The notes under the pieces are model-generated. The model saw nothing but the letters and a program-made list of their open reading frames with translations, searched no databases and had not been told where the DNA came from. Shown piece after piece: positions 277 to 30,927 of a stretch of DNA of 60,724 bases. This DNA is from an uncultured Alphaproteobacteria bacterium (GTDB taxonomy: Bacteria > Pseudomonadota > Alphaproteobacteria > RF32 > CAG-239): contig CALXYD010000004.1 of assembly GCA_944392865.1 (NCBI GenBank), forward strand, positions 1 through 60,724. The letters run 5' to 3'. The stretch's first letter is position 1; each line of letters opens with the position of its first letter. A program made the position numbers and the translations under genes.

Positions 277-277
277 A

Positions 278-2335: not shown

Positions 2336-2964
2336 TGGCGGAGAATCGAGAAGTATTGTTGAATAGCGGCAAAGAACTTTTTAAGAAGAAATGTTCGTTT
2401 GTTTTGAGTGTTGCGAATTTGAAACAGCTGCCGGACGGAGACAGAGTTGAGGTGGCTTTTGCCGGACGTTCCAATGTTGGAAAATCCAGCTTGCTTAACG
2501 CCCTGTTTGGGCAGAAAAAACTGGCAAAAACATCCTCCACCCCCGGGCGGACGCAACAGTTAAACTACTTTAATTTAGATGATAAAATTTATCTGGTGGA
2601 TTTGCCCGGTTACGGCTTTGCCAAAGCTCCGAAAGATATTGTTAAAAACTGGCAACAGCTCATCAATGCTTATCTTGTCGGACGGGCGACTTTGCGGCGC
2701 GTTTTTTTGCTGATAGATTCCCGGCATGGCATAAAAAAAATTGATGAAGAGATTATGGATATGCTGGATAAAGCGGCCGTTACTTACCAAATTGTCCTGA
2801 CTAAAGCGGATAAAATCAGCGATAAGGCGCTTGAAAAAATCATCAATGAGACCGAAAATAAGATAAAAAGCCATACTGCCGCTTATGTCAGCGTTTTAAA
2901 AACAAGCGCGGAGAAGAATTTATTTATTGACGAGGTTAAAGCTGAAATAGCCTCGTTGCTTTAG
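2335..2964 (+). CDS. engB: Ribosome biogenesis GTPase YihA/EngB
   Basis: G1 GRSNVGKSS, PGRT, G3 DLPGYG, G4 TKAD; follows yidC. Confidence 0.96.
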   Translation: MAENREVLLNSGKELFKKKCSFVLSVANLKQLPDGDRVEVAFAGRSNVGKSSLLNALFGQKKLAKTSSTPGRTQQLNYFNLDDKIYLVDLPGYGFAKAPKDIVKNWQQLINAYLVGRATLRRVFLLIDSRHGIKKIDEEIMDMLDKAAVTYQIVLTKADKISDKALEKIINETENKIKSHTAAYVSVLKTSAEKNLFIDEVKAEIASLL

Positions 2965-3941
2965 GTTATTTCGGTTATACCGCGAATATTGCCATCGCGG
3001 ACAATCTGGACGACGTGCAGTTTACGGCGCATTTCCTCTATTGTTTTTTCCACATCTATATGCGGCTGGGTGCGCATTATACGTTTGACAAATGCTTCAT
3101 ACGCTGCCGTTGAACTTTCTGCGTGGATGGTTGCCAAGCAATTATCGTGTCCCGAGCCCATCAGCTCCCAAATTGCACCGGCGTTACTGGTTGAAATTTC
3201 ACCGCCGATAATTGCATCCGGCGTAAAACGCACAATCAAGTCAATAACTTTAGAGTAGTCCATACTGTTGGTTTGCTCCGTTCGGGACAACACGATGTGG
3301 ACGTGATTAGGCTGGGGGACATTTAATTCACGCGTATCTTCAACGGTTATGACCCGTTTATGAATATCCAGCAACTTTAACAGATTATTCAGCAGCGTTG
3401 TTTTACCGGTACCGGTACCACCGCTTACCAAAATATGGTCACCGCGGCGTAAGGCCAACAACAGGCGTTCATACGCATCATCCGGGTCTTTGATGTTTTT
3501 CAGCGGGTTTATTTCTTTTAATTTTTTCCCCTGCTCCAAACCATAATCGCCAAAACCAAAAGCTACGTCGTCGGTATGAAGACGGATGGTAATGGCGACA
3601 CCGCCGGTGGCGGAATCGTCCAAGTCGTATTCAATATTTTTGCCGGCGACTCCGGTAAAACGATGTCCGCCGGGGATACGGGCATAAACAACCGGTGAAC
3701 CGTTTATCGGGTCAAATTCCTGATCGTTCAGATTGGCTATAATATGAAGCAAATTTATCAGATATTCCCGGCTTAATTTCGGGTCTTTGTAATTTACCCA
3801 GGGGAAAGCCCTTTTGCCACGCAGACGAAGCCAAATATCGCCCGGATGGTTGATGGCGACTTCTTCAATATTTTCCTGTTCGTACCAATAGGCCAGCGGT
3901 CTTAAAACAGAACAAAGAACTTCGTCTTCCAACTTTCCCAT
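2961..3941 (-). CDS. virB11: VirB11-family type IV secretion ATPase
   Basis: Walker A GGTGTGKTT, Asp box EDTRE, Walker B-like PDAIIGGE, His box GH..LATIHA, N-terminal EEVAINHPG; directly downstream of virB10. Confidence 0.9.
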   Translation of the reverse strand: MGKLEDEVLCSVLRPLAYWYEQENIEEVAINHPGDIWLRLRGKRAFPWVNYKDPKLSREYLINLLHIIANLNDQEFDPINGSPVVYARIPGGHRFTGVAGKNIEYDLDDSATGGVAITIRLHTDDVAFGFGDYGLEQGKKLKEINPLKNIKDPDDAYERLLLALRRGDHILVSGGTGTGKTTLLNNLLKLLDIHKRVITVEDTRELNVPQPNHVHIVLSRTEQTNSMDYSKVIDLIVRFTPDAIIGGEISTSNAGAIWELMGSGHDNCLATIHAESSTAAYEAFVKRIMRTQPHIDVEKTIEEMRRKLHVVQIVRDGNIRGITEIT

Positions 3942-3972
3942 AATCTTATCCTCAAAAATATTTTACTTCTAT

Positions 3973-4001
3973 ATTTTAGCATAAGTTAACATTTCAGTCA
4001 A
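3973..4001 (-). promoter_or_regulatory. Putative sigma70-type promoter of virB11
   Basis: Minus strand TTGACT-N17-TAAAAT with extended -10 TG, in the virB10-virB11 gap. A one-mismatch CtrA-like box (TTTA-N7-TTAAC, 3975-3990) overlaps it. Confidence 0.65.
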
Positions 4002-4013
4002 GTTACTGTTTGG

Positions 4014-7000
4014 TTAGTATAACGGCGGTATTCCTTCCACTTCTTCCGATAATTCATCCTCGCTCGGTGGAACACCGGTTATTGAGCCATCGGCTGCCGG
4101 CGGAGGAAGCGCGCCTGTGTTATTTTGGCCTGTATTTCTCCGTTGATTATTATTTTGCGGTTCTTCGCTTATTAGCGGAGTTCCACCACCGCCACTGTTA
4201 TCTTGATTAGAAGTTCCTCGGTTACTCTGGCCTCCAAGAATAACTTTCCTGCTACCACCACCATTATTGCTCTCAACAGTTGATGTAGTGGTTGTTCCTG
4301 TTCCACCGCCAACGACTTCTTCTGTAACTAATCCGCCCTGTCCGGAGCTTGGAATATCCGTCGCAACGCCTCTTTCAATATCTTTGGTGCTTCTTAGCCA
4401 CAAATCTCGCATCGGATATATGATAATTCTGGTACCTGCCGGAATATACGTTACGGATTGAATTTGCGATTTGCTGTCAATAATCTGTTGCAGTATCTGA
4501 TCCATTTTATCCATAAACTGTTGACGCGCATCAGAAGCCGCTTGTTGTTTTGAATTTTCAACTTCTCCCGTGCTTTCTTCATCAACAGCCATCATATAGG
4601 TAATGGCTGAGCTTGCCAGAGTTCCGACAATCGGCAATGTATATTTTTTAACTAACTGTTCATCAACATAACCAAGCGCGCCGCCGCCCCGTCCTTGCGC
4701 ATCGCCAGTTTGTGATGTTCCGGCATCCAAAATAAAAGCTATGCCATCCGGACGGATAATTCTCGACCAGGCGATTTCAAGTTTCACGCCACCGCTGGTA
4801 CTATCAAACCGATCTTCACCGTCAATGTCTTGCAAACCGCCAATAATACGGCTTCCGGCAGGTATAATTACATTTCTCCCCGTATCACCGTATATATTCC
4901 GTTCAACAATCGCTGTAACCGGAGCAGAACCAAAGGAAATCAGCGAACGCGCCATTACGGCAGGAATCGGTTTATCCGCAGTAATCATATTGTCCATATT
5001 TACACGCAAAGTTGAAACGGCGCGGGGAATACCCCAATCATCCTGCCAGCCGGTATAAGAGGCAGCGTTAAAGCCCGGTGTAACAACTGCCGCGGCCATT
5101 GTTTGACGACGCTCATTTTGCAGCTGAGCCAAAATTGCAGCGCGTTGCGGATTATATCTGCCACCAGGTCCGATACCTCCGCCCGGTCCGACAAAGGTTG
5201 CTTCATCTGTATTATCATAAGGATTTATTGTTGTGTTCCTAACCACCGCATCAATCCACCTAGCCCTAGTATTGGCTCCTAGCGTATCCTGAACTTGAGG
5301 TTTTTGTAATTGCCCGACAGTATTTCCATCGTTATCAATAACTTCCCCGTTTTCATTTACACGACCGATAGTTTCCCCGTTATCGTCTACAACTGTATTA
5401 TCGCCCAGAACATCGCCGATAATGTTTCCGCCCGGCGTTACGGCTATGCCAAGAAATCCCCTATTTCTTCTCTGTTCAATCAACGCCTCATCTTCCGGCG
5501 TTTCCTCTGGCGCATCGGCCGCACTTTCAATCTCTTCGTTTTCATTTATCATTTCCGTGGCAGCCGGTTGGTCATCAGATGAGCTTTCTTCATTATTTTG
5601 GTTTTTATTATCGCCTGTTTTTTCCTCGTTTTCTTTTTCTCTATCTGATTCTGACTGTTCATCCTCATCTTCCGGCTCAGCAGGGCGTTGATAATATTGC
5701 AGGCGTTCCGCTTTGGCTATGATATTCCCGCCGGCATTTTTTATATCGCCGTTAGGTTGCAGCTGTCCGACCTCAATGTTTTTGACATCTAAAACAGATC
5801 CGTCCAGTTTAAGGTGGCCGATAATCTCATGCGCGGCATTTCTTATTTCATAATCCCGGGCGCCTCGTCCGATTAAATTTTGTTTTTTATCAACAACGAA
5901 TCCATTGTAGATTGTTCCTTTCATCTCGCCCATAATGCTATAAACACGTCCGTTTTTCGCAATATAGCCGATGGTTTTTCCATCGTTGTCATATACATAT
6001 AAGTCATACAAAGCAAAGCCGTTTTTACTTCCCTTTATAACAACTTCGCCATTATATTGGACGATACCCAAGATTTCGCCGGCATCCGAAACGACTCTTC
6101 CGTCCGGTTTAACCCGCCCGAGATACACGTTATTACTGTCAAAGGCTACCGTATATTTAAACGGGACGCCAACATTTTCTCCGTTTTTAGCAAGAATACT
6201 GCCGTCAATATCACGAACGGCAATTTGCACACCGGAATTATCAACAACGTTACCATAGAAATCCGTATAACCGATAATTTTATTATTAAATCCCATAATC
6301 GGCGTATATGATATTGTCTGGCCGACAATTTCTTTTTGAGGGTTGCGTACCAGACCATCGGCACCTACACACCCCATATTTTGATTAGAATAGTTTAGGA
6401 CATTTCCCAGCGGGCCAGATATACCGAGCATCTCTCCTTTTTTACCGCTAACTGCCTGAGGAACAACAATATGGCCGATTACATTTTCAGTTTCATTCAT
6501 TATCTGCCCATTAGTTAAGACCATCCCCAGGTATGCACCGGCGGATGTTCTGGCTTCACCAGAATCAGAAACGACGCCTAAAAACTTACATTCCGGCGAG
6601 ACTACGGCACCGAGAGGCGCGGCACCGCCGTATAGTGCACCCATATTGTCCAGAGCGTTGCCATTAGAACTTATTTTGCCGATATTTTCCGTTCCATCGA
6701 CAATTTTTCCATCCAAAAGATTATAGCCGAGATAATCGCCGTTAATACTTACGCTGACAGGGGAAGCACCTGCTCGTCCGTATATTTCCGTATTTTTTCC
6801 TGACAGCCCTACGGCGTTACCGTCCGGCAAAATTTTAGCGATTTTCTGATCCCGCATATTGACCACTTGATAAACCGGCGTAACGAATCCCAATGTTGCC
6901 CCTTCAAAATTGGTAACATACTTGTCTTCAATAACTTTTCCCAGCAGCTTATTATTTTTATCTAAGAACATACCGGATCCGGTTAACTTGGCAATTTCAT

Positions 7001-8387
7001 TTAAGGAAGAATTTTCCGTTTGTCCGTTTCCGGTGGTGTATGACAGCATATTCCCTTCGGCTGAAAATATATGCCCCAAGGGATAGTTTCTGCCATTTAA
7101 ATTTCCGGTTTCATCATAGACATAGCCATACGGCGATGTTTTATAAACTTTTCCATTAAACGGGAGTATGGAATTTATACCGCTAACTCCGATAAATTCA
7201 TTAGAGTTGTTAAAATTCAGACGCGCATCCATTATCCGTCCCAACTGGTTGCCATTGGTATCAAAAGCACTCTTTTGTACCATTTGCCCCAAATCAACCC
7301 CTTCCAATGATACAACCCGTCCGCCTACGGCTGCATTTGCTTTAAGCTCGCCTAAATAATCAAAAACCGGACCTTCGGCATTTATAACACCGACAACTTC
7401 GCCTTTTTCATTGACGACATTGCCGGAGGCTCCGATTTTTCCTACGATGTTCCTTCCGCGAGCAATCTCTCCTTTTGCCGTAATCCGGCCTAAGTATTTT
7501 CCTTCCAATGTATTGGCCGTAGCAGACAGACTTACGGTAAAACCGATAACCTTGCCATCTTTATTTATAACGCGTCCGCCATTAACGGCGCGGGCAATAG
7601 TCGCCCCTTTATCGGTAACTTCTCCGTTATAACTGACAACGCCAATATATTTTCCATCAAGATTAAAGGCATAGCCGCTCTCTGCCACCTGCCCGATGAT
7701 TTTTCCATCGGCAGCATAGACGAATCCGTTGGCGTGAATATTTCCGACTGTTTTTTTATTTACATCAATGACTTTTCCGTCCGGGGCAATACTGCCCAAG
7801 AATTTGCCGGTTGACGAAACAACGATTTTAGAAGTAATCAGTCTGCCTGCCAATGCGACTTTACGGTCAGTTCCAGCGGTAAAGACATAGCCGGAAGCGG
7901 TTACATATCCCGTATTCTCGCCGACTAAATTATAAAACCGTCCGTCACCGGATACTCTGCCGGTAATCTGCCCGGCATCGTCATAAACAAGCCCCGGAGA
8001 AACAACAGCGCCCAGAATATCATAGTTATCATTTACGACCAAGCCGTTCGGCAAAACTTTTCCTACCAACGTATCATTTACGGCCGTTACGGAACCGTCA
8101 TTGCTGACTTTACCCAAAATGCTGTTATTATAGGAAATCGCAACGCCCTGAGGCACAACGCCGCCAATGATATTTTTCTCATCGTTATAAACAAAGCCGT
8201 CTGCGGTTATATGGCCAATTAATTCATTGTCAAAATTGATAACCGTGCCGTCGGGAATAACCTTTCCGATTAAATCGCCGTTAAAATTAAGCGCGCTCAT
8301 ATCGGCGGCGATTGCTCTGGCGGCAATCCCCATCAAAACGATTAAGCTTGTGATAAATCTGCTTAATTTTAACTTGTTAATGTGCAA
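4014..8387 (-). CDS. virB10: Giant VirB10/TrbI-domain protein with ~900-aa N-terminal beta-hairpin repeat region
   Basis: C-terminal TrbI motifs (IPAVMARSL, VERNIYGDTGRNVIIPAGSRIIG, IAWSRIIRPDG, DAQGRGG..GYVD, IPAGTRIIIYPMRDL). N-terminal signal-like peptide, GxVxxxxGxxIG repeats and an acidic linker. TTG start with GGAGG RBS. Confidence 0.9.
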   Translation of the reverse strand: MHINKLKLSRFITSLIVLMGIAARAIAADMSALNFNGDLIGKVIPDGTVINFDNELIGHITADGFVYNDEKNIIGGVVPQGVAISYNNSILGKVSNDGSVTAVNDTLVGKVLPNGLVVNDNYDILGAVVSPGLVYDDAGQITGRVSGDGRFYNLVGENTGYVTASGYVFTAGTDRKVALAGRLITSKIVVSSTGKFLGSIAPDGKVIDVNKKTVGNIHANGFVYAADGKIIGQVAESGYAFNLDGKYIGVVSYNGEVTDKGATIARAVNGGRVINKDGKVIGFTVSLSATANTLEGKYLGRITAKGEIARGRNIVGKIGASGNVVNEKGEVVGVINAEGPVFDYLGELKANAAVGGRVVSLEGVDLGQMVQKSAFDTNGNQLGRIMDARLNFNNSNEFIGVSGINSILPFNGKVYKTSPYGYVYDETGNLNGRNYPLGHIFSAEGNMLSYTTGNGQTENSSLNEIAKLTGSGMFLDKNNKLLGKVIEDKYVTNFEGATLGFVTPVYQVVNMRDQKIAKILPDGNAVGLSGKNTEIYGRAGASPVSVSINGDYLGYNLLDGKIVDGTENIGKISSNGNALDNMGALYGGAAPLGAVVSPECKFLGVVSDSGEARTSAGAYLGMVLTNGQIMNETENVIGHIVVPQAVSGKKGEMLGISGPLGNVLNYSNQNMGCVGADGLVRNPQKEIVGQTISYTPIMGFNNKIIGYTDFYGNVVDNSGVQIAVRDIDGSILAKNGENVGVPFKYTVAFDSNNVYLGRVKPDGRVVSDAGEILGIVQYNGEVVIKGSKNGFALYDLYVYDNDGKTIGYIAKNGRVYSIMGEMKGTIYNGFVVDKKQNLIGRGARDYEIRNAAHEIIGHLKLDGSVLDVKNIEVGQLQPNGDIKNAGGNIIAKAERLQYYQRPAEPEDEDEQSESDREKENEEKTGDNKNQNNEESSSDDQPAATEMINENEEIESAADAPEETPEDEALIEQRRNRGFLGIAVTPGGNIIGDVLGDNTVVDDNGETIGRVNENGEVIDNDGNTVGQLQKPQVQDTLGANTRARWIDAVVRNTTINPYDNTDEATFVGPGGGIGPGGRYNPQRAAILAQLQNERRQTMAAAVVTPGFNAASYTGWQDDWGIPRAVSTLRVNMDNMITADKPIPAVMARSLISFGSAPVTAIVERNIYGDTGRNVIIPAGSRIIGGLQDIDGEDRFDSTSGGVKLEIAWSRIIRPDGIAFILDAGTSQTGDAQGRGGGALGYVDEQLVKKYTLPIVGTLASSAITYMMAVDEESTGEVENSKQQAASDARQQFMDKMDQILQQIIDSKSQIQSVTYIPAGTRIIIYPMRDLWLRSTKDIERGVATDIPSSGQGGLVTEEVVGGGTGTTTTSTVESNNGGGSRKVILGGQSNRGTSNQDNSGGGGTPLISEEPQNNNQRRNTGQNNTGALPPPAADGSITGVPPSEDELSEEVEGIPPLY

Positions 8388-8388
8388 A

Positions 8389-11300
8389 TCAGTTCCTCCG
8401 ATTTTGAGCGACTTCGTCTAACACATATCCAGCCACCTGGTTTTTACCGTTCACATACGAACCGTTACTTTTCAGATAGCCTATCCGGCCGTTAGTCAGG
8501 CTAAGGACACGGCCGTCAGGAGCCAAGCGCCCAAAATATTTCCCGTCATTTCCCAGTATATTAGCACCTATTTTATAGGTATGTCCCATAATTTTTCCAT
8601 TGTTATCTACAACTAAATTAGAAGAAATAACTTTACCAATAACGGAATGCTCAAAGTTCAGGGCTTTTCCTTCAGCATTTATATAACCGATGACTTTATC
8701 TTCATCGCTAATGATGATATCTCCTTCAATGATTTCGCCTATCAACACACCTTTATTATTGACGGCTTGCCCTGTGCTCAAAATTCGGCCAATCGGCTGG
8801 TTGTCGGTGGATATAATGCTACCATCCGGTGCAACCTGCCCAATGACGTGTCCGGAATAATTCAAGATAACACCTCTTTTTAAGACGCTGTAATTTTTAT
8901 TAGATGCGCCTCCCGGCAAAACCGTCGTCTCTATTTTATCATCAATTCCGATAATATCGCCCAGAGCATTGAGATACCCTTTTACATTTCCCTGCACGTC
9001 AATAACAATATTTTCCTCAATGACTTCGCCGACCAATTGCTTATTTTTATTCAATACATGGCCATCAGCGCCGACATAACCGCTCAAATTGCCGTCGACA
9101 TCAATAACCGTTCCTTTTTTGCTGACATAACCTAAATACGAACCATCATAGCCAATTCCTACCCCCGTGCGGACTATTCCCCCTTTGTAGTTTCCTTTTT
9201 CATCAAACATCCGCCCTTTGGCATCAATTTGCCCGAGCTCCGTTCCTAAAACGTCTATCACTTTGCCATTATCATTAACCAAGCCGATATAATTTCCGTT
9301 CATATCAACGACATTTCCTTTGGGTAGCAGCCGACCGGTTTTGCGTGCATAAAATCCGCTTCCGTCATAGACGAATTTATCTACGGCAATTCCCTGCTGA
9401 TTATAGACATATCCGTCCGCAAACATGTGCCCAATAACCTTGCCATTGGCGTCTACGATAATGTTCTTTTCCGGCAGCAGAACACCTTTGATTTCCTTTT
9501 TGGGATTTACCAACAAGCTACCCAACAATATTTTTGTATTCGGAATTACCGCCGTGCTGTCATAACCAAAAGGCGACAGGTTATTAACAAACTCTCCCTC
9601 CAGCGTATAGGCCTGAGTTTTATCAACAACTTCACCAATGATAAAGCCGTCTTTATTCAGGATTTCCCCTTCAAAATTAGCACATCCGACGGCTGTATTG
9701 CCAGATTTGACAATACCGTCATTACCGACAATGCCCATCATCTCTCCGTTATAGTATAGTGCATACGCCGGTTCATGAACTTTTCCGACAACTTTGCCGT
9801 CCGGGTTCAGAACACTGCCATCCGGATTGACGCACCCCACATATCCTCCGTCATTGTTGCGAACATATCCGTCTTGTCCGGCTTTGCCGATGATGTTACA
9901 CTTTTCATCTCTTACCCAGCCGATTTTAGCAATATCACCAGCATAGTCGCCGTTGCTGTCAACGATACTGCGGTCAAAGAGCATACGATATTCGGTATTT
10001 TGACCGTCTTTCTTTACTCTGGCATCTCTATCCACATAACCTAATTGTTTACAGCCCCACCCGACGGCAAGTCCGCCGATAACCGTTTTTCCGATAATAT
10101 TATCGCCTTCAGCGGTGCGTATTAAAGATGACGGCAGCACCTTTCCGATAACTTCGTTTTTGTTGTTTACCACTTCCCCTCGGTTATTTATGGCTCCCAG
10201 GCTATATCCGTTCGGCGACATCGGTATCATATCTTTCTTTATGACAGCGCCGATTTTTATACCTCGTGAAGTGATAACATTGCCTTCTTCGTCCAGATAA
10301 CCAATTACTAAACCATCCGCATTATAAACTTTTCCATCAGCCCCGACATAACCGATAACATTGCCGTTTTCGTCAACAGCAAGGTTGGCATATCCGCCGA
10401 CAGTTCCGACCACCCGGCCATTTTCATCTATCGTAAATTCCGTATAATCCCCGATGCGTCCGATAATATTGCCGTTTGCGTCTTTTATGGTTCCGTCTTC
10501 CTGCAGTTTGCCGATAACCTTGCCATTTAAATCATAGGCGATACCATTTTCATCGACATAACCAATCACATTTCCATTTTCATCCAGAATTGCCCGGCGG
10601 CGGACAACTTGCAAATTGCCATCGCCATCTTCGGCAAGACGTCCGATTACCTCGCCATCTGTTCCGTAAACAGTGCCGTCAGCCGCAACGAATCCTATTG
10701 TTTTTCCATCGTTACCGATAACCCGACCCTTGTCGTCTACATAGCCGATAATATTTCCGTTTTCATCTACGACAACTTTTGCCATATCTCCGGCCTTGCC
10801 GATGATATTGCCGTCTTTATCGTGTATCGTGCCATCTTCCCCGAGATAACCGATTAAATTCCCGTTGAAATCCCTGACCGTGCCATCGTCATCTATGTAG
10901 CCGATAACATTACCGTTTTCATCCAGCGCCAACCTCTTTTTTATGTCGGCTTTGCCCAAAACTTCTCCGGTCAAACCAACGATATTGCCATTCTCATCAA
11001 CAAAACCCAAAAGTTCGCCGTTCTCTTTATAAACATTTCCGTCTTCGCCGATATAGCCGATAACATTGCCATTTTCATCTACCGCAAGTTCAGCCATTTT
11101 TCCCACTTTGCCGATGACACGCCCATATTGGTCGGTTATTGTTCCGTCCGGATTGGCTTTACCGATGATATTGCCGTTAAAGTCCCGCACATTTCCGTCT
11201 TCATCAACATAGCCGATAACGTTACCGTCTTTGTCGTATGCCAGCCGGCCGACTTTTCCGGCCGTTCCGATTATCTCTCCCGTGTTGTTCAGAATATTGC

Positions 11301-14300
11301 CGTTTTCATCAACATAGCCTATCGTATTGCCGTTAAAATCTTTAACAGAGCCGTCTTCGTCTATGTAACCGATAATATTGCCATCTTTATCATAAGCCAG
11401 ATTTTTTGCGTCACCGACACTTCCGATTATCTTGCCATCGACTCCGACAATATTTCCATCCTTGTCAACAACGCCTATGACATTGCCATTCTCGTCAATT
11501 ACCCGGCCATTCTCATCAACATAGCCAATAATATTGCCGTCTTTATCATACGCAAGTTTATGCTCCAATCCGGCTTTACCGATAATATTGCCGTCTTTAT
11601 CAACAATATTTCCGTCTTTATCAAGTTTACCGATAATATTTCCCTTAAAATCTTTAACCGTTCCATCCGGCTCAATATACCCGATGACTTTACCATTCTT
11701 ATCCAGAGCCAGTCGCCGCCCTTCGCCAATTTTACCGATAATTTCTCCATTAGCGCCGATGACATTACCATCTTTGTCGACATAGCCGACAACTTTTCCA
11801 TCCGGACCAATAACATTACCGTTTTCATCAACATAGCCGATAACGTTACCGTTTTTATCATAAGCAAGCTTTACGCTTTTACAAGCGGTGCAGATTATTT
11901 CGCCGACGGCAATAACTTCGCCTTTTTCGTTAACATAGCCAATGAGTTTGTTTTCTTTATCATAGGCAAAATTATTTGCCTTCATAAAGCCGATATGCTC
12001 GTTGCCATTGTTACGCAGCGTTTTATTATCCTTATCCAACCGCCCGATAATATTATGTTTGGCGGCTAAAACATTGCCTTTTGCGTCAACAAGTCCGATG
12101 ACTTTGTTTTCATTTCCGCGAACATAGTTTTTATCATCAACATAACCGATTATCATTTTGTCGGCGTTACTGACGACATTTAACATCACACCGGTTTTGC
12201 CAGCCAAGCGGCCGCGGGAATCGATAATATCCGTCCCTTTTCTCTGTCCTATAACCTTTCCAGAAAAGTCTTTAACAACATTTTTATCGTCAACATAACC
12301 TATTATTCCCTTTCCTTGCGTGCCATAGGCAACTCTTTTGCGAATACACGTCCTGCCGATTTTTTTGTCGCCGGCTTTGATTATATTGCCATTTTTATCA
12401 ACAAAGCCGATTATATTTCCTTTTTCATCTTTTACCCGCCCGTGTTCGTCAATATAACCGATAACATTGCCATTTTTATCCATCGCGACTCGATTGAAAT
12501 CCCCGGCTTTACCAATAATCCGCCCTTTGGTATCAACAATAGTCCCGTCTGCGGTCATTTTACCGATTAAGTTGCCTTTGAAGTCTTTAACCGTGCCATC
12601 CGGCGTCACATATCCTATAACATTGCCGTCTTTGTCATACGCCAAGCGCTTATAATTGCCGGCGCTCCCCAGAACTTCTCCGCTAGAGGCTATGATATTG
12701 CCGTTTTTATCAACCACGCCGATGATTTTGCCATCACAGTCAATAACTCTCTTTTTATCATCTATATATCCGATAAACACACCTTTGGAATTAAAGGCTA
12801 TTTCCTTTGTCTCTCCGACTTTGCCGATGACTTTGCCGCTTTTATCTACAACGTTGCCATTTTTATCGGCTGTACCCAAAGTTACGCCGCCGCACCCCTT
12901 AACAGTACCGTCAGAATCGACGTATCCGATAAATTTACCATTCAAATCATACGCCAACGGACGCGATGTTCCTGCTTTGCCGATTACTTTTCCGTTTGTA
13001 CCGATAATTTTCCCGTCGGCATCAACAAACCCTAACAGCTTTCCGTCCTTGCCGATAACGCGCCCATTTTCATCAACAATACCGATAACATTGCCGTTTT
13101 TATCATACGCCAATGTTGCATAATCGCCGGCTTTGCCTATTTTACGGCCGTTTTTATCAATAATTTCGCCTTTATCGTTGACCTTACCGATGATATTGCC
13201 CTCAAAATCAACAACGTTTCCGTTGTCATCTATGTAACCTATCGGTTTACCGTCTTTTCCTAAAGCAATCCGCTTACGGGCAACGCCGCTCTTGTCCTGT
13301 CCGGCTTCAATTATGTTGCCGTTTTCATCTACGGTTCCTATCAGCTTGCCATTTTTATCAAATACCCGCCCCTGCTCGTCTATGTAGCCGATTACTTTGC
13401 CATTTTTATCTAATGCCAAGCGACGGGTGGCGCCAGCTTTGCCAATTATTTTTCCGTTTTTATCAATGATATTTCCGTCTTTATCAACTTTGCCGATAAT
13501 GTTTCCGTCAAAATCCCTGACTGTTCCGTCCTTGTCAATATATCCGATAACATTGCCGTCTTTGTCCAAAGCCAAACGCCGACTGGCGCCGACTTTGCCG
13601 ATAACTTTCGGTTTATTTCCGTCTTTGGAAAACTTTACAACTTTACCATTTTCATCAATGTAACCGATGGCTTTGCCGTCTTTATCATAAACAATTTTCC
13701 GACTCTCGCCGTTTGCACCGATTTTTTCTTCTTCAACGCGGTAAACATTGCCGTTTTCATCAACATAGCCAACAATATTTCCGTCTTTATCCACCACGCT
13801 GTTATCCGGCATAACAACCCCAAGAACATTGCCGTTTTCATCAACAACGATATTTCCGGAAGACGTTACTTTTCCGATAACATTGCCGTTTTCATCCACG
13901 ACTTCGCCGTTTTCATTCAACCGGCCAATTACTTTTTTGGGGTCATTTATATCAACAACCGTTCCGTCAGGTAAAACGCGGCCAATAATTTTTCCGTTTT
14001 CATCATATACGAATCCGGCTTCTACGGCTTTGCCGATAACTTCGCCTTTGCTATTGACGATTGTCCCGTCCGGTAATGCTTTTCCGATAACTTCCCCTTG
14101 CAGGTCAACAACCGTTCCGTCTGTTTTGACATATCCGATAATGTTTCCGTCTTTATCATAGGCTAATTTCATATTTTGGGCAACACCGATGATATTTCCG
14201 TCTGCGTCAACAATCAGGCCGTCTTCATTAACTCTACCGATAATGTTGCCGTCTTTATCATGCACATTTCCGGCTTCATCAATATAGCCGATAATTTCTC

Positions 14301-14982
14301 CGTTCGGCCCGATAGCTAACCGATGCGCACCGACACCGCCGCTACCAATGGCGCACCCCGACGAAGCATCACATATCTGTTGAGAATCATCGGGAAATAC
14401 CGCACTACCTTTAATACTGACTTCTTCTGATTTTGCGCTTGATTCATCTAATCTTGTTTCATACCAGATAATTTTGAAATTGTTTTGCACATTGCCGGGG
14501 AAATGCGGCGTCCAGGAGATCAGCACATTACACGTTTCATCACCGCGCAAATCGCGATTGCGGCACTTATCCCTGAACTCAAAACCGTCTTCCGTTTCTT
14601 CTACCAATTCAACCCGGACAATATGGATACTTTCGCTGCCATCCGTACCGATAGTCAAAACACTCTGATTTTGCGTGTCTACGCCCAAAATAAACCGATT
14701 CATATTTATTTGCGAAGGCGTTACTTTTATGGGTTTTGCTCTTTCGGTAAAACCGGTTTCTTCCGTTTCTATAATTACAGGCTCTTCGGCAATAGACACA
14801 TCCGGAAGAATATCTTGATTTTCCACAAAATCCGGGGTGTTTTCTTCCGGGTTATACTGCTTAACTTCGGTGGAGATAATCAATAACCCAAACAGGAAGA
14901 AAAGCCCGGAAATAATTCCGATTATCAGAATTATCTTTCGGGTTTTTCTTTCATATTCTTCAAAACGGGTATTTTCGTTCAT
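8389..14982 (-). CDS. ~2197-aa membrane-anchored protein: N-terminal TM, Ig-like (ASH/choice-of-anchor-D-like) domain, ~1950 aa of beta-hairpin repeats
   Basis: Start re-placed at ATG 14982, giving an ATGA overlap with the virB9 stop. TM KIILIIGIISGLFFLFGLLII; CRNRDLRGDETCNVLISWTPHFPG Ig-like signature; very many DxxGxxIGxV units. Lies between virB9 and virB10. Confidence 0.85.
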   Translation of the reverse strand: MNENTRFEEYERKTRKIILIIGIISGLFFLFGLLIISTEVKQYNPEENTPDFVENQDILPDVSIAEEPVIIETEETGFTERAKPIKVTPSQINMNRFILGVDTQNQSVLTIGTDGSESIHIVRVELVEETEDGFEFRDKCRNRDLRGDETCNVLISWTPHFPGNVQNNFKIIWYETRLDESSAKSEEVSIKGSAVFPDDSQQICDASSGCAIGSGGVGAHRLAIGPNGEIIGYIDEAGNVHDKDGNIIGRVNEDGLIVDADGNIIGVAQNMKLAYDKDGNIIGYVKTDGTVVDLQGEVIGKALPDGTIVNSKGEVIGKAVEAGFVYDENGKIIGRVLPDGTVVDINDPKKVIGRLNENGEVVDENGNVIGKVTSSGNIVVDENGNVLGVVMPDNSVVDKDGNIVGYVDENGNVYRVEEEKIGANGESRKIVYDKDGKAIGYIDENGKVVKFSKDGNKPKVIGKVGASRRLALDKDGNVIGYIDKDGTVRDFDGNIIGKVDKDGNIIDKNGKIIGKAGATRRLALDKNGKVIGYIDEQGRVFDKNGKLIGTVDENGNIIEAGQDKSGVARKRIALGKDGKPIGYIDDNGNVVDFEGNIIGKVNDKGEIIDKNGRKIGKAGDYATLAYDKNGNVIGIVDENGRVIGKDGKLLGFVDADGKIIGTNGKVIGKAGTSRPLAYDLNGKFIGYVDSDGTVKGCGGVTLGTADKNGNVVDKSGKVIGKVGETKEIAFNSKGVFIGYIDDKKRVIDCDGKIIGVVDKNGNIIASSGEVLGSAGNYKRLAYDKDGNVIGYVTPDGTVKDFKGNLIGKMTADGTIVDTKGRIIGKAGDFNRVAMDKNGNVIGYIDEHGRVKDEKGNIIGFVDKNGNIIKAGDKKIGRTCIRKRVAYGTQGKGIIGYVDDKNVVKDFSGKVIGQRKGTDIIDSRGRLAGKTGVMLNVVSNADKMIIGYVDDKNYVRGNENKVIGLVDAKGNVLAAKHNIIGRLDKDNKTLRNNGNEHIGFMKANNFAYDKENKLIGYVNEKGEVIAVGEIICTACKSVKLAYDKNGNVIGYVDENGNVIGPDGKVVGYVDKDGNVIGANGEIIGKIGEGRRLALDKNGKVIGYIEPDGTVKDFKGNIIGKLDKDGNIVDKDGNIIGKAGLEHKLAYDKDGNIIGYVDENGRVIDENGNVIGVVDKDGNIVGVDGKIIGSVGDAKNLAYDKDGNIIGYIDEDGSVKDFNGNTIGYVDENGNILNNTGEIIGTAGKVGRLAYDKDGNVIGYVDEDGNVRDFNGNIIGKANPDGTITDQYGRVIGKVGKMAELAVDENGNVIGYIGEDGNVYKENGELLGFVDENGNIVGLTGEVLGKADIKKRLALDENGNVIGYIDDDGTVRDFNGNLIGYLGEDGTIHDKDGNIIGKAGDMAKVVVDENGNIIGYVDDKGRVIGNDGKTIGFVAADGTVYGTDGEVIGRLAEDGDGNLQVVRRRAILDENGNVIGYVDENGIAYDLNGKVIGKLQEDGTIKDANGNIIGRIGDYTEFTIDENGRVVGTVGGYANLAVDENGNVIGYVGADGKVYNADGLVIGYLDEEGNVITSRGIKIGAVIKKDMIPMSPNGYSLGAINNRGEVVNNKNEVIGKVLPSSLIRTAEGDNIIGKTVIGGLAVGWGCKQLGYVDRDARVKKDGQNTEYRMLFDRSIVDSNGDYAGDIAKIGWVRDEKCNIIGKAGQDGYVRNNDGGYVGCVNPDGSVLNPDGKVVGKVHEPAYALYYNGEMMGIVGNDGIVKSGNTAVGCANFEGEILNKDGFIIGEVVDKTQAYTLEGEFVNNLSPFGYDSTAVIPNTKILLGSLLVNPKKEIKGVLLPEKNIIVDANGKVIGHMFADGYVYNQQGIAVDKFVYDGSGFYARKTGRLLPKGNVVDMNGNYIGLVNDNGKVIDVLGTELGQIDAKGRMFDEKGNYKGGIVRTGVGIGYDGSYLGYVSKKGTVIDVDGNLSGYVGADGHVLNKNKQLVGEVIEENIVIDVQGNVKGYLNALGDIIGIDDKIETTVLPGGASNKNYSVLKRGVILNYSGHVIGQVAPDGSIISTDNQPIGRILSTGQAVNNKGVLIGEIIEGDIIISDEDKVIGYINAEGKALNFEHSVIGKVISSNLVVDNNGKIMGHTYKIGANILGNDGKYFGRLAPDGRVLSLTNGRIGYLKSNGSYVNGKNQVAGYVLDEVAQNRRN
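10450..13580 (-). repeat. Degenerate intragenic tandem repeat, 156-bp (52-aa) unit made of three ~17-aa subunits
   Basis: Consecutive units such as KLAYDKDGNIIGYVDENGRVIDENGNVIGVVDKDGNIVGVDGKIIGSVGDAK are 52 aa long. CTTTATCATA occurs at 11385 and 11541, 156 bp apart. Boundaries approximate. Confidence 0.85.
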
Positions 14983-17051
14983 TGCACTCTGACCACGCTG
15001 CAAAAGATTCCGTTACGTCCTAACTGGCTGCAGATATTATCTCCTTCCTCCAACGATTTGACCGGCCCTACGCGAAGGTGAAAGACCTCTTTTCCTTGTC
15101 CGTCGGCGGGCGTATCTACGGAATAGAACGGTTGGTATCTGCCAATTGTAGCCGAGTAATTTTTGGAAATATCGTTCCATAATTTTTCCAGATTATTGAC
15201 ATCCTCGTCCGTTCCCAATTCAATAGATATATTGCTGTCATTTACACTTTCAAAAACTTTCCCGTTACGAAATTCTTTCAGAAGTTCTTCCATTTCGGCA
15301 GTTAAGACCGTATTACCACCCTCAATATCTTCTTTAGGCGTAATCAATATCGGGCTGGAGTTATTTACAGAACCACCCATGGTTGGCGTATTGCTATTCG
15401 GCACGTTCGCAACATTATTTGTTGTTGCGGCGTGAGGCTGTTGAGTGTTGCCGCTTTTATTACCACTACCGGCAGATATGCCGTTTGCCCCACTCCCGGC
15501 TGAAGTTTCCGTTTGCGTATTTGTCGGAGCGGAAGGAATATTTATTCCCGGCGCCGGAGCAACAACCGGTGCAACTTTAGGCATAGAGTTAAGCATTGTT
15601 TCATCATTAAGGCTTGCGGAAGCAGCCGATTGCCCCATTGTCTTTGCGCCATTGCCTACACTATTTCCAACATTATTTCCATTAGCGCCTGCGTTATTGT
15701 ATCCGCCGTTGACAACATTGTTTCCTCCCTGGTTGTCGTTATTTTGCCTGAAATTTCCATTTCTCATGCCTGAATTATTTGCCGGCGGCACGGCACGTTG
15801 GCCGCTGATTATATCTTCATAACTTAATCCGCTATCTTCCGTTGCCGATCTGTTTGATGAACCGGCAAACGTATTATTGCCAAAGAAACCGACATTTGAG
15901 GATGAGCCTTTGCCTGATGCTTGTCCGCTATGACCATTTGTTCCGCCGACACCATAAACATCTTCATATTCGCCATCCGAACCATCTCCGGGTTGCGAGG
16001 CATAGGCATTTTGTAAATCCCATTCGTTTGTTTTGGCATAAATCGTATTTTCCAACCCATCCGAATCGGCGCGACGCAATTTTAAGCAGACAATTCTCTT
16101 TCCGCTACGCAACACCATATCCCCCATACCTTCAACAATTATCAGACGGTTATTGGGGCCGGCGGTGCGGAAACCTACCGGTGTTTCGGAACGTTCAACA
16201 ATCAGGGTTACAATCGGGCGCTGAATAGCCGTCAAAGCTTTATCGCCCAAGTCTATATAGGTAAATATGTTATCACGCCAAACACGTTCCGGGGCTATGA
16301 TTATATCGTCCGGATTTGGGACATACACTTCTATATCAAAACGGAATTTTGTCGGGTCAACAGGGATTTTTTCAATCCAGTCCTCTTTTTGAAGATTGCG
16401 CGTAAAGGTAGCATCTTCGCTACTTCCATCTGCGCTGTAATCGTTTGCGTTAAGATGACCGCCTCCGGCTCCTCCGCCCATGACGTCGGAAATTCCACCG
16501 CGTTTTTTTACAACCTCTATATCAATTATTGCATTAGTAATTCTGTCGGTATTAACAGTTTCGCTTTGAACATAGAACACATATTTGTTCCCGGAGCGAC
16601 CGAAGACAATCATATTGGTATCAACGCCGACAAACTGCGACGAATCAGGATAAACCAACAGGCTGGACGGCCCTTGTATTTCCGCGTTAAATGATTGGCC
16701 ATCACCGATATATACATTTTCAATTACTTCCCAACTCGGAAAATTGATGAGCGTATACATTCCTTCACGCACTCTTACCGGCAGAACAAGATCAGGCGTC
16801 CAATAATATTTGGTATATCCCGGCCGTGTCTGCCCTTCACCCATGTGTTGCAAAGGGTCTTTCCATGCGCTTTGCATCATTCCCAACGACCCCACGCCGC
16901 CTAAATAATTCAAATTTGTTGCCGCATAATTCCCCTGGCTCTGGTCAGCATTTTGATCCAGATTATCCTTAGTAACTTGCGCCAGAGCCACGTTTGCAAC
17001 CAGAACAGAAGCCAGAACCGTCAGAAAAAAGATATTCGCTATTTTTACCAT
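14979..17051 (-). CDS. virB9: VirB9/TrbG outer-membrane core protein fused to a C-terminal SPOR domain
   Basis: Signal peptide; VirB9 N-domain (VRVREGMYTLINFP..E.I..VYIGD, DTNMIVFG); C-domain (APERVWRDNIFTYID, MVLRSGKRIVCLK); Asn/Gly-rich linker; SPOR-like tail (IELGT...FHLRVGPVKSLEEGDNICSQLGRNGIFCSVV). Confidence 0.88.
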   Translation of the reverse strand: MVKIANIFFLTVLASVLVANVALAQVTKDNLDQNADQSQGNYAATNLNYLGGVGSLGMMQSAWKDPLQHMGEGQTRPGYTKYYWTPDLVLPVRVREGMYTLINFPSWEVIENVYIGDGQSFNAEIQGPSSLLVYPDSSQFVGVDTNMIVFGRSGNKYVFYVQSETVNTDRITNAIIDIEVVKKRGGISDVMGGGAGGGHLNANDYSADGSSEDATFTRNLQKEDWIEKIPVDPTKFRFDIEVYVPNPDDIIIAPERVWRDNIFTYIDLGDKALTAIQRPIVTLIVERSETPVGFRTAGPNNRLIIVEGMGDMVLRSGKRIVCLKLRRADSDGLENTIYAKTNEWDLQNAYASQPGDGSDGEYEDVYGVGGTNGHSGQASGKGSSSNVGFFGNNTFAGSSNRSATEDSGLSYEDIISGQRAVPPANNSGMRNGNFRQNNDNQGGNNVVNGGYNNAGANGNNVGNSVGNGAKTMGQSAASASLNDETMLNSMPKVAPVVAPAPGINIPSAPTNTQTETSAGSGANGISAGSGNKSGNTQQPHAATTNNVANVPNSNTPTMGGSVNNSSPILITPKEDIEGGNTVLTAEMEELLKEFRNGKVFESVNDSNISIELGTDEDVNNLEKLWNDISKNYSATIGRYQPFYSVDTPADGQGKEVFHLRVGPVKSLEEGDNICSQLGRNGIFCSVVRVQ

Positions 17052-17069: not shown

Positions 17070-17840
17070 TTAATTTGTTTTACGTTCAACCTGTCTGTAA
17101 TCCAACACCGTGAACCCCAGCGGATTTTTCAAGCGTTCGCCGAATCTTACCTTTTTGGCGCGATACATTATCTTTACAGAAGCTACCCAAACACTCAATC
17201 GCGGCGTTTCATATTCCGGCATCATATCTTCCACCCTAAATTCCACCTGCCACCAGGTTTCGCCCTTAGCACCGCCAACTTCGGTTACTGATGATATTTT
17301 TATATTACGCGTTATATTATGTTTTCTTATCAACTCCAACGCCGCATCGGCAAAATTTTTACGAAAGCTGTCATACACGCCGGTTGATGACATTTCTTGT
17401 ATCGTGCTGCCGGTTCCCCATCTTCTTTCCATCTCATCAATATCGTTTACGAGCGTATTGCGGAGCAAGATGTATTCACGCACAAATATCTCGGTCAAAT
17501 ATTTATGGTCGTAAATATTTTTTACCGGTTCAATTCTGTATATCTGGTCTTTTTTATCAGAAAAGCTGAACAAATACGGTTCAACACGGTAAAGCGGCAT
17601 AATAGCAAAAATAACGTAGGTCAAAATAAGATTGCAACACATACTCACGGCAAAGATGATTGCAAAAGCACGCGCCGTCCACAAATATCTCTTCTCCGTT
17701 GAGTTCTCTACCACGACATCTGCGTTGCGGCGGCGCTGAGCCCGCGCAGCGGCACCTGCCGGAGATGTCGGATGTCCGCCTTTTCCCTCAAGCAGCAGTT
17801 TTTTTGTTTTATCTGAAGATATTTGTTCCTGTCCGGCCAT
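17070..17840 (-). CDS. virB8: VirB8 family protein (copy adjacent to virB9)
   Basis: Single TM followed by MPLYRVEPY, FVREYILLR and C-terminal NPLGFTVLDYR. Confidence 0.9.
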   Translation of the reverse strand: MAGQEQISSDKTKKLLLEGKGGHPTSPAGAAARAQRRRNADVVVENSTEKRYLWTARAFAIIFAVSMCCNLILTYVIFAIMPLYRVEPYLFSFSDKKDQIYRIEPVKNIYDHKYLTEIFVREYILLRNTLVNDIDEMERRWGTGSTIQEMSSTGVYDSFRKNFADAALELIRKHNITRNIKISSVTEVGGAKGETWWQVEFRVEDMMPEYETPRLSVWVASVKIMYRAKKVRFGERLKNPLGFTVLDYRQVERKTN

Positions 17841-30893: not shown

Positions 30894-30927
30894 AATACCC
30901 CTCCCAGTCAATAATATATTTTGGTGG

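Follow-up and report, generated by a model that had tools for sequence, protein, structure and literature searches.

The window, a 60,724-nucleotide stretch of DNA from an uncultured alphaproteobacterium, carries a vir locus on its minus strand (Table 1). Two virB8 paralogues and virB9 are followed by a very large gene, hereafter X, and then by virB10 and virB11, so that X and virB10 jointly fill the slot between virB9 and virB11. VirB9 comprises a CagX/VirB9 domain, a long low-complexity region and a C-terminal SPOR domain, and the NCBIfam VirB9 model matches it below cut-off. Across the genus, VirB11 identity is mostly 93–98% and falls to 77–79% in the most divergent genomes. VirB10 is matched by the ComB10 structure (PDB 2bhv) at E 7.7e-16, and the NCBIfam ComB10/VirB10 models match it below their cut-offs. 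X itself has no TrbI (PF03743) match at E ≤ 0.01.

Table 1. Genes and features of the vir locus, in window coordinates.
Feature	Position	Strand	Basis or remark
virB11 ATPase	2961..3941	-	Pfam T2SSE E 1.3e-25
virB10, 1457 aa	4014..8387	-	Pfam TrbI E 3.2e-28, Bflower_2 E 3.8e-55
TrbI/VirB10 barrel domain, VirB10 residues 1135-1331	4395..4985	-	Pfam; sole TrbI match in genome
VirB10 irregular hairpin domain D2, residues 28-692	6312..8306	-	paralogue of X D1, by sequence
VirB10 signal-peptide-like N-terminus, residues 1-27	8307..8387	-	K/R n-region, 13-residue h-region, A-I-A
X, between virB9 and virB10	8389..14982	-	2197 aa + stop
X irregular hairpin domain D1, residues 1583-2197 (615 aa)	8392..10236	-	ends ...EVAQNRRN
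Shine-Dalgarno (SD) GGAGGA for virB10	8394..8399	-	within final Arg-Arg-Asn codons of X
X regular beta-hairpin array, residues 221-1582	10237..14322	-	Pfam, autocorrelation, AF2
X ASH/PapD-like Ig domain, residues about 85-200	14383..14730	-	AF2 + Foldseek
X acidic linker, residues 39-84, predicted disordered	14731..14868	-	AF2 pLDDT
X single TM helix (N-in membrane anchor), residues 17-38	14869..14934	-	uncharged stretch + AF2
X cytoplasmic tail, residues 1-16	14935..14982	-	10-sequence alignment A1
virB9, 690 aa	14979..17051	-	Pfam CagX E 1.1e-12, SPOR E 5.9e-4
virB8 paralogues, two	17070-17840 and 18190-18948	-	Pfam VirB8 E 2.9e-18, 2.1e-12

The longest frame of X in the ORF listing (8389..15003, minus strand) opens at an upstream TTG, and orthologue alignment places the start at the ATG at 14982, giving 2197 aa. 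As an earlier note on this DNA had stated, X is translationally coupled on both sides. At the virB9 junction (minus strand, ...gtgcaATGAacg), the X ATG at 14982-14980 and the virB9 TGA at 14981-14979 overlap as ATGA. At the virB10 junction (minus strand, cggaggaacTGAtTTG), the X stop at 8391-8389 is followed by a single T and then by the virB10 TTG at 8387, a gap of 1 nt. The NRRN tail of X is retained even though its codons no longer form a Shine-Dalgarno sequence in L072 (AGA AGA) and L087 (CGT CGG), which indicates that the tail is also constrained at the protein level. Contigs from RNA libraries (X8) bridge both X junctions; these may stem from library DNA.

Since the draft genome consists of 87 contigs, the two-gene layout might be put down to an assembly error or to a recent pseudogenizing mutation in the MAG. 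We find this scarcely credible. Window positions 7600-15400 are spanned by a contig from an independent DNA run of a different study (X5) with 72 substitutions and 0 gaps, and none of four runs lists an insertion or deletion; X is therefore not an assembly artefact. The same layout recurs in genomes of different species (65 of 80 loci), and X frames are intact across the order.

X opens with a module of cytoplasmic tail, membrane helix, linker and Ig-like domain. Tail positions T5, Y10, K13 and T14 are invariant in alignment A1. The 22 uncharged residues that follow (17-38) are preceded by K/R and coincide with an AF2 helix at residues 5-38, bearing out the one N-terminal TM segment claimed by the earlier note; all ten X orthologues share an uncharged stretch of 21–25 residues. 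Disorder of the linker is suggested by AF2 pLDDT below 50 at residues 41-44 and 51-79. Where the same note had put an Ig-like domain (about 14400-14735), AF2 predicts a beta-sandwich (residues 85-212, ~14383-14730) with per-block pLDDT of 83–93. Its best Foldseek match in the PDB is 6fvi (E 3.8e-7, probability 1.00), followed by 2e6j, 1m1s and 4lk4, and TMt against single-domain targets is 0.58–0.71; the predicted fold is that of an ASH/MSP/PapD Ig-like sandwich. Pfam ASH has no match in X itself, and in the G025 orthologue it reaches E 1.4e-5 and 25.7 bits, just under the cut-off of 27. The A1 profile matches many multi-Ig giant proteins (3930 proteins at E ≤ 0.001).

From the Ig domain to the C-terminus, X consists of beta-hairpin repeats, as the earlier note had described, and the DUF3659/beta-flower type that it named agrees with Pfam matches above curated cut-offs. 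Bflower_2 matches 23 stretches (E 1.9e-151, 495 bits, cut-off 38), Bflower reaches E 1e-99 (329 bits, cut-off 25), and DUF3659 (PF12396) matches 10 stretches at E 4.1e-66. Genome-wide there are 35 Bflower_2 matches, and all but one lie in X (26) or VirB10 (8). The regular array comprises about 25 super-repeats of 52 aa, each with three 17-aa hairpin units of the beta-flower/DUF3659 type; sequence autocorrelation peaks at lags of 52, 104 and 17, and DxxG or NxxG tips (e.g. DKDG, DENG) recur with the 17-aa period. AF2 models residues 1038-1349 as all-beta, with 34 short strands and no helix (pLDDT 81). Long strands 104 aa apart in this model hint at six-hairpin modules, as read from DSSP and pLDDT only at a pTM of 0.40. 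Foldseek found no PDB analogue of the repeats (TMq at most 0.17).

The hairpins also bear some likeness to Rhs/YD repeats. RHS_repeat scores 76 bits over the whole of X with no single stretch passing, and PDB 7q97 (Rhs/YD) matches the repeats at E 0.0025. Foldseek against Rhs shells gives a TMq of 0.12, and no toxin domain was found in X. We rejected X as an Rhs/YD-repeat protein, since the resemblance stops at the hairpins and does not extend to an Rhs shell with a toxin.

A long, repetitive, all-beta protein with local, weak likeness to Rhs/YD hairpins could instead be a T4SS-exported filament or adhesin, either surface-exposed or secreted, and part of the repeats of the VirB10 homologue CagY is reported to be surface exposed. 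Length variation between species would fit such a role: array length varies strongly, with X spanning 1031–3151 aa in 80 further loci and open frames of 1039–2734 aa across the order (151-genome sample). We nevertheless consider it very unlikely, and with it the surface filament suggested in the earlier note, because X has an uncleaved N-in membrane anchor: the N-terminus carries 21–25 hydrophobic residues, and no small-x-small cleavage motif was found there. Tandem repeats at the DNA level are limited to two 21-bp rows, and by their sequence the repeats are old, unlike recently recombining surface arrays. The conserved C-terminal tail and the tight coupling of X to virB10 likewise argue against a filament.

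X is a fixed part of the vir locus throughout the order. Its N-terminal module is present in 150 of 151 sampled genomes and in all 20 genera, with one match each; within the genus, X was recovered from 23 of 24 other genomes. Thirteen of 18 loci show the whole series virB8-virB9-X-virB10-virB11; of the remaining five, four run off a contig and one has the fused gene. Among 80 further loci, 65 are split, eight are cut, seven are too short to judge and none is fused. The earlier note had staked its reading on homologues being linked to vir genes, and they are: virB9 lies directly upstream of X in 79 of these 80 loci, and the ORF after X carries TrbI in all 65 loci of sufficient length.

In another set of 17 loci, X and virB10 mostly form a single gene: 11 have one ORF, two are split (G267, G319) and four are truncated at contig ends. 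The one-ORF VirB10s (1273–2831 aa; 11 genomes from six other alphaproteobacterial families) combine, in this order, a cytoplasmic tail, TM helix, ASH-type Ig domain, hairpin array, acidic/proline-rich linker and TrbI barrel. The profile of the X N-terminal module matches the first ~200 residues of these single ORFs, which also bear Bflower and TrbI (for example, G027, 1273 aa, TrbI E 1.3e-35; G358, 2468 aa, TrbI E 1.1e-29), and the cytoplasmic tail and TM helix of X are conserved with them. Because the same module forms the VirB10 N-terminus in these families, X is VirB10-derived rather than a gene of foreign origin. The earlier note's view that X resembles no canonical VirB subunit, and that it is a new subunit inserted between virB9 and virB10, thus does not hold. 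The break point could not be located on the one-ORF proteins, where repeat-driven alignments at 25–33% identity land in several places.

The virB10 product opens with a signal-peptide-like sequence, predicted to be of the Sec type. The -3/-1 rule holds in all 38 VirB10 orthologues, with an h-region of median length 13 (range 8–18), as judged by rule of thumb rather than by a dedicated predictor. D2 follows, beginning with the conserved mature N-terminus ADMSALNFNG. In BLASTP, D1 of X and VirB10 residues 28-900 are colinear from the first residues (25% identity over 674 columns, E 1e-40); by this comparison D1 is paralogous to D2, the mature VirB10 N-terminus. X is thus not simply a front half of VirB10, and some duplication was involved. 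The 300 aa nearest the junction are conservation peaks in both proteins (46 orthologue pairs): the last 300 aa of X are more conserved than its residues 1701-1900, VirB10 residues 1-300 are conserved as strongly as the TrbI domain, and X ends in NRRN in 69 of 72 loci.

We considered whether X and VirB10 might still be made as one polypeptide, through a programmed frameshift or read-through at CGG AGG AAC TGA T TTG. A conserved SD-like GGAGG lies just 5' of the stop, a layout akin to that of the prfB +1 frameshift site, and the frame offset in the window is +1. The X-virB10 gap, however, is -1, 1, 2, 4, 7, 17 or 19 nt in 37 loci, and in six more loci an in-frame start lies 3 nt past the stop; with spacing and frame so variable among orthologues, one recoding event could not account for all of them. 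Because all 38 virB10 orthologues also have a start codon of their own and encode a signal-peptide-like N-terminus, we regard recoding as highly improbable.

Combining these observations, we propose that X is probably the N-terminal half, anchored in the inner membrane, of a giant, lineage-specific VirB10 that has been split into two genes. In a tree of VirB8, VirB9, TrbI and VirB11 restricted to the ingroup, one branch parts the 15 split from the 11 fused rows (UFBoot 100, SH-aLRT 97). Adding four distant outgroups collapses the ingroup base, and the split then needs one or two changes, one in 34% of bootstrap trees. Polarity thus leans on the usual VirB10 architecture: the outgroup VirB10s (520–571 aa) are single ORFs with a TrbI domain, and we infer the direction from one gene to two by parsimony over that architecture rather than from rooting. 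One giant virB10 gene would have become two translationally coupled genes in an ancestor that the window's family shares with two sampled sister lineages, G267 and G319. The gene may simply have broken in two, or virB10 may have been duplicated and the copies have undergone reciprocal loss, a route with which the D1/D2 paralogy agrees. X would have retained the tail, TM helix, Ig domain, regular repeats and D1, and the new virB10 would have a Sec-type signal peptide followed by D2, the linker and the TrbI barrel.

How the two halves may fit together is suggested by a complex model of the last 300 aa of X and VirB10 residues 28-300. Three runs gave ipSAE values of 0.76, 0.76 and 0.77, agreeing in at least 84% of contacts with partner pLDDT of at least 81, and the best of three controls gave 0.00. 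Of 80 solved complexes, 58 reached the mark applied to ipSAE, as did 2 of 110 mismatched pairs, a calibration that is only approximate given self-made alignments. The predicted interface takes in the X tail (fragment residues 294-298) and VirB10 residues 28-31. The controls were unrelated proteins rather than other hairpin arrays, and homologous repeat arrays may co-fold generically, which lowers the weight of the model. For the proposed split VirB10, we envisage that X would remain in the inner membrane while VirB10 would be exported and join VirB9 in the outer-membrane core. Non-covalent binding between D1 and the beginning of D2, as modelled, would let the pair span the envelope like a single VirB10, its periplasmic hairpin scaffold being unusually large.

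X may also have acquired a role of its own. Some ~2150 of its residues lie in the periplasm beyond the TM helix, its array length differs greatly across species, and duplication, as in D1/D2, is a common route to new function. That X, though VirB10-derived, is an accessory subunit in its own right (a periplasmic cage, ring or strut) rather than an anchor half coupled to VirB10 nonetheless seems rather unlikely to us: it shares a conserved tail and TM helix with the one-ORF VirB10s, the two new termini are likewise conserved, and the complex model sets the X C-terminal region against the VirB10 N-terminus. The two readings are compatible and differ mainly in emphasis, and the periplasmic strut or cage put forward in the earlier note is a possible role.

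The proposed split VirB10 retains the canonical VirB10/TrbI (PF03743) plan on two polypeptides. X and VirB10 together provide a tail, one TM helix, a periplasmic spacer and a TrbI barrel in the virB9-virB11 slot; by sequence, the nearest solved relatives of VirB10 are ComB10 (2bhv), TrwE of R388 (7o3j) and Xanthomonas VirB10 (6gyb). The usual VirB10 spacer is a short proline-rich stretch, whereas here it comprises ~3000 residues of hairpin repeats and an Ig domain. Unlike in canonical VirB10, the TrbI-bearing piece opens with a signal-peptide-like sequence rather than a membrane anchor, and the N-terminal module matching the VirB10 N-terminus sits on X, apart from TrbI. The best-known oversized, repeat-bearing VirB10 is Helicobacter pylori CagY, a single polypeptide of ~1900 residues with long internal repeats of another kind, encoded beside the VirB9 homologue CagX. 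Legionella DotG/IcmE, a type IVB VirB10 homologue, likewise has a long pentapeptide-repeat insertion between anchor and TrbI-like domain on a single polypeptide. At the level of general descriptions of these proteins, the X/VirB10 pair resembles CagY as an enlarged, repeat-bearing VirB10 and DotG/IcmE in its long repeat insertion.

DUF3659 is a mostly fungal family, and our literature search found no text that names it together with "secretion system". Beta-flowers (PF21784, PF21785; clan CL0395) were described by Durairaj et al. (2023; PMC10584680) as stand-alone domains of ~96 residues with 8, 10 or 12 strands and [DNEQ]xxG hairpin tips; some are lipoproteins, and the parts of that paper that present the family describe no function. 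X repeats resemble them in Pfam scores far above cut-offs, in [DNEQ]xxG tips and in having no PDB analogue. Unlike the domains presented there, ~2800 residues of hairpins here lie within two T4SS proteins, where they may close into the shallow, rotationally symmetric barrels of 4-, 5- or 6-fold flowers. Beta-flower/DUF3659 hairpins thus form parts of T4SS proteins here, in a two-gene layout of X and virB10 that is maintained across an entire order of gut Alphaproteobacteria.

The 2197-residue protein encoded between virB9 and virB10, hereafter X, most probably descends from the N-terminal portion of a giant VirB10 with beta-flower repeats, whose gene was split in this lineage. Relatives with both parts in a single ORF point to this origin. 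In a genome of another family (G027), a 1273-aa ORF starts with a tail, transmembrane helix and Ig domain of the X type, together called the N-module; beta-flower repeats, a Pro/Glu linker and a TrbI domain follow. This giant VirB10 lies directly between virB9 and virB11. Among 17 distant loci (15 more loci fetched, plus L029 and L030), 11 loci from six families encode a one-ORF giant VirB10 of 1273–2831 aa, two are split as in the window (genomes G267 and G319), and four are cut by contig ends. G267 encodes an X of 1563 aa and a VirB10 of 1760 aa; the X of G319 is broken by a run of N. Pfam likewise places Bflower and TrbI within one ORF in the genome G358 and recovers the split architecture in G267. 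The window's own genome has a single TrbI domain, and 34 of its 35 Bflower_2 matches fall in X (26) or VirB10 (8). X has its front end in common with the VirB10 of sister lineages and its repeats in common with its own VirB10, which argues that it is no foreign insertion. The earlier note had seen in X a new structural subunit inserted into the system: a genuine, conserved structural protein of the type IV secretion system (T4SS) it is, but its novelty gives way to a probable VirB10 ancestry.

Features of the T4SS cluster, its surroundings and protein X (nucleotide positions in the window, or residues of X)
Feature	Position	Strand	Basis
Housekeeping genes yidD, yidC, YihA/EngB-type GTPase	1-2964	+	
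VirB10 C-terminal tail past TrbI	4014-4390	-	
Gene X, ATG to TGA	14982 to 8391-8389	-	
VirB10, TrbI domain	directly after X	-	Pfam/NCBIfam
VirB9, CagX + SPOR domains	14979-17051	-	Pfam/NCBIfam
VirB8 paralogues, two copies	17070-17840 and 18190-18948	-	Pfam/NCBIfam
Five ORFs between virB4 and virB8	18972-30959	-	
VirB4		-	Pfam/NCBIfam
VirB11	same cluster	-	Pfam/NCBIfam
VirB2-like pilins (TrbC/VirB2), two copies	33807-34178 and 34738-35184	-	Pfam/NCBIfam
TcpQ-domain protein, secretin, PilO-like protein, T2SSE ATPase, T2SSF platform protein	within 36920-46018	+	
X tail, charged, four residues invariant	residues 1-16		alignment
X transmembrane helix (TM), 22 uncharged residues, helix in AF2 model	residues 17-38		sequence + AF2
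X linker, predicted disordered	residues 39-84		AF2
X Ig domain, beta-sandwich, pLDDT 83-93	residues 85-212		AF2
X super-repeats, ~25 x 52 aa, three 17-aa hairpins apiece	from residue ~221		
D1, irregular hairpins, 17-aa period only, C-terminal end ...EVAQNRRN	last 615 residues of X (1583-2197)		

The X gene reads just as the earlier note described it. Its start codon overlaps the virB9 stop (ATGA), and a single T separates its own stop from the TTG of virB10, with GGAGGA lying within the final codons of X. A DNA contig from another study covers 7600–15400 with 72 substitutions and 0 gaps, and the four sequencing runs that we aligned show no indels against the window. Contigs from RNA libraries span both X junctions, only a weak hint of co-transcription because such libraries can contain DNA. 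Candidate length variants from read joints inside the X repeats were rejected, as the sides of the joints were short (23–36 letters).

X sits in a P-type T4SS cluster, whose genes were assigned with Pfam and NCBIfam. Housekeeping genes adjoin the cluster, which is therefore chromosomal, and no obvious mobile-element border appears on their side (yidD/yidC). A VirD4 homologue is present on another contig. This one cluster contains two copies of the pilin gene (TrbC/VirB2) and two of the VirB8 gene. The five ORFs between virB4 and virB8 received no usable family assignment from Pfam or NCBIfam: those of 1853, 451 and 236 aa have no match in either, and those of 737 and 694 aa have weak coiled-coil-type matches only. 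The 1853-aa ORF occupies what we take to be the place of a VirB6-like protein. In VirB9, both here and at L030:13107-14600, a low-complexity region of ~250 residues rich in Gly, Asn and Ser is accompanied by a SPOR (peptidoglycan-binding) domain at the C-terminus (match E 5.9e-4 in the window, E 6.8e-5 in G027). Past its TrbI domain, VirB10 ends in a Gly/Thr/Asn/Gln-rich tail of ~125 residues that is poorly conserved (24 bits per 100 aa against orthologues). Divergent from the T4SS lies a type IV pilus or type II secretion-like cluster.

Behind its membrane anchor, X consists of an Ig domain followed by a long array of beta-hairpins. The nearest PDB structures to the Ig domain, according to Foldseek, are the ASH/PapD-like domains of CEP192 and HYDIN, MSP, and the Ig domain of VesB. 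The repeats give an autocorrelation of 0.32 at lag 52 and 0.29 at lag 104, and Bflower_2, Bflower and DUF3659 all match them far above the Pfam cut-offs, bearing out a resemblance suggested in the earlier note. They are old at the DNA level, and Tandem Repeats Finder reports just two 21-bp rows. Modelled with AF2, six super-repeats form an all-beta structure of 34 short strands (pLDDT 81, pTM 0.40); the model rests on a shallow alignment because MAFFT shifted rows out of register (419 columns for 312 residues). Foldseek finds no PDB fold match to this model (TMq at most 0.17). The absence of a PDB analogue agrees with the account of the beta-flower fold by Durairaj et al. (PMC10584680).

The N-module is near-universal in the order as sampled. 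Within the genus, 23 of 24 further genomes have it. Sampling of the order recovered it from 150 of 151 genomes, representing 20 of 20 genera, with one match per genome and in open frames of 1039–2734 aa; in the class, 22 of 401 sampled genomes carry it. The sole genome of the 151 without a profile match, G092, is listed as 100% complete. Record titles describe the carriers as uncultured gut and rumen Alphaproteobacteria, and the window stretch was found in runs labelled chicken-gut or bird metagenomes. Genomes of the order measure 1.3–2.0 Mb. The presence of a T4SS in nearly every sampled genome suggests that the system is central to the lifestyle of this uncultured gut order.

Linkage to vir genes is equally consistent. 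The order virB8-virB9-X-virB10-virB11 is intact in 13 of 18 loci, the others being cut by contig ends (four) or fused (one), and virB9 lies directly upstream of X in 79 of 80 further loci, so homologues of X keep the vir association on which the earlier note had staked its claim. In 65 of these 80 loci X and TrbI are on separate consecutive ORFs; eight are cut and seven end too early to tell. Of the 72 loci whose 3' end is complete, 69 encode an X that terminates in NRRN. A census of fused versus split forms by N-module profile was discarded, swamped by unrelated multi-Ig giant proteins.

Each of the two proteins has a characteristic N-terminus. In all 38 VirB10 orthologues examined within the family, the protein opens like a signal peptide: its n-region has K/R, its h-region has a median length of 13 residues, and positions -3 and -1 are small. 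A conserved (A/Q)(D/E)I(S/T)A(I/L/V)(D/N)F(N/D)G comes directly after it. X orthologues have 21–25 hydrophobic residues without the small -3/-1 motif. This predicted uncleaved, N-in anchor makes it unlikely that X is a surface filament. The data also accommodate an autonomous cage or strut role, a reading that departs from that of a split VirB10 mainly in emphasis. Recoding could in principle yield X and VirB10 as one chain, but the gap between the genes varies among orthologues (-1, 1, 2, 4, 7, 17 or 19 nt in 37 loci), virB10 starts in frame in six further loci, and each virB10 comes with a start and a signal-like peptide of its own, all of which renders such a chain unlikely.

The facing ends of X and VirB10 resemble each other. 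D1 is colinear with residues 2–665 of mature VirB10 (mature numbering) in an alignment (25% identity, E 1e-40) that begins with the opening residues of each, so the two proteins carry paralogous domains at the junction. Scored over 46 orthologue pairs from other genera, the first 300 residues of VirB10 are as conserved as its TrbI domain (96–100 versus 92–98 bits per 100 aa), and the last 300 residues of X are more conserved than the preceding 200 (94–106 versus 68–78 bits). The virB10 Shine-Dalgarno sequence (CGG AGG) falls on codons of the NRRN tail of X; NRRN is kept in two loci that have their own downstream Shine-Dalgarno sequence and other Arg codons.

Structure prediction brings the two ends together. 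We modeled the last 300 residues of X with VirB10 residues 28–300, using a 38-row alignment for each, and obtained ipSAE values of 0.76, 0.76 and 0.77 against 0.00 for the best of three controls, which were unrelated proteins, so that generic co-folding of two hairpin arrays might also produce such values. Of 80 solved complexes, 58 attain this ipSAE mark, as do 2 of 110 mismatched pairs, a rough calibration as our own alignments were used. The runs share at least 84% of contacts, partner pLDDT is at least 81, and the predicted interface of ~220 contacts includes the X tail and the first residues of mature VirB10. The model thus supports binding of the C-terminal region of X to the N-terminus of VirB10. 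We regard it as possible, if somewhat short of probable, that these bacteria possess a natural two-piece VirB10, in which an inner-membrane anchor half (X) and an outer-membrane barrel half hold to each other solely through paralogous beta-hairpin (beta-flower-type) domains that pack non-covalently.

How such a split arose can be approached through phylogeny. An ingroup tree of concatenated VirB8, VirB9, TrbI and VirB11 was built on 26 rows: the 11 fused loci, all of them included, 13 chosen loci of the family, and G267 and G319. In it, a single branch parts split from one-ORF forms (UFBoot 100, SH-aLRT 97); a quick tree agrees, and the midpoint root falls on this branch. Adding four distant outgroups collapses the ingroup at its base, with long-branch warnings, and the split then takes one or two changes; the tree therefore gives no polarity. 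We infer fission rather than fusion because the outgroup VirB10s found here are single chains with an N-terminal anchor, as VirB10 is in textbook systems. Three of them (L130:1557-3194, L131:10334-12049, L132:10408-11970) are single ORFs of 520–571 aa with TrbI and without beta-flower repeats. These three start with an N-terminal anchor or lipobox, two being lipobox-like, and the one from G291 shows, between anchor and TrbI, a weak match to an Ig-like domain (Cep192_D4 or HYDIN Ig, E ~3e-4), which hints that the Ig domain may predate the repeat expansion. The queries used found no TrbI near virB11 in G236 or G181, and neither genome bears on the form of VirB10, although G181 (locus L129) is one of the four outgroup rows through its VirB8, VirB9 and VirB11. 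In L129, ~7 kb between virB9 and virB11 (~1533-8486) hold four ORFs of 289–611 aa, also without a TrbI match to these queries, and may represent one more divergent layout at the position of virB10.

Neither BLASTP with X and VirB10 segments nor HMMs of D1 and of D2, the hairpin domain of VirB10 (residues 28–692), assigned a break point on the one-ORF VirB10s: matches at 25–33% identity overlap in several places. The D1 HMM was built from four sequences only, other genera being missed by the motif pattern. G267 alone is colinear, D1 aligning to X residues 950–1557 and D2 to VirB10 residues 32–733. No NRRN-like or EITAIDF-like motif occurs inside the fused proteins. The split could have come about through a break between two tandem hairpin domains, or through duplication of virB10 and then reciprocal loss; the paralogy of D1 and D2 fits the second route.

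We found no earlier description of a split giant VirB10 in the literature searched, nor of the giant VirB10 subfamily itself, which combines an ASH Ig domain with up to ~2000 residues of beta-flower hairpins. The searches, with supplementary files outside their reach, returned no pairing of VirB10 with DUF3659, Bflower, PF21785 or PF12396, none of DUF3659 with a secretion system, no type IV secretion in RF32, Rs-D84 or CAG-239 and, among the matches listed, no split VirB10; one further search yielded microbiome surveys only. The beta-flower fold has been described from predicted structures only (PMC10584680). A split VirB10 would give this fold a testable role.

A split would also be of real interest to T4SS structural biology. 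VirB10 is the one T4SS subunit thought to cross both membranes as a single chain, and to communicate to the outer-membrane channel the energy state of the ATPases in the inner membrane. If it is naturally split and conserved as such, one half sitting in the inner membrane by its anchor while a predicted signal peptide exports the other, it would directly test the need for covalent continuity. If the two-piece reading is true, inner-membrane ATPases would signal to the outer-membrane channel without a continuous VirB10 chain, and the beta-flower fold, for which no function is known so far, would for the first time acquire a functional context: it would serve a secretion machine as a periplasmic scaffold that associates with itself. 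The machine itself is a core feature of an entire order of gut Alphaproteobacteria.
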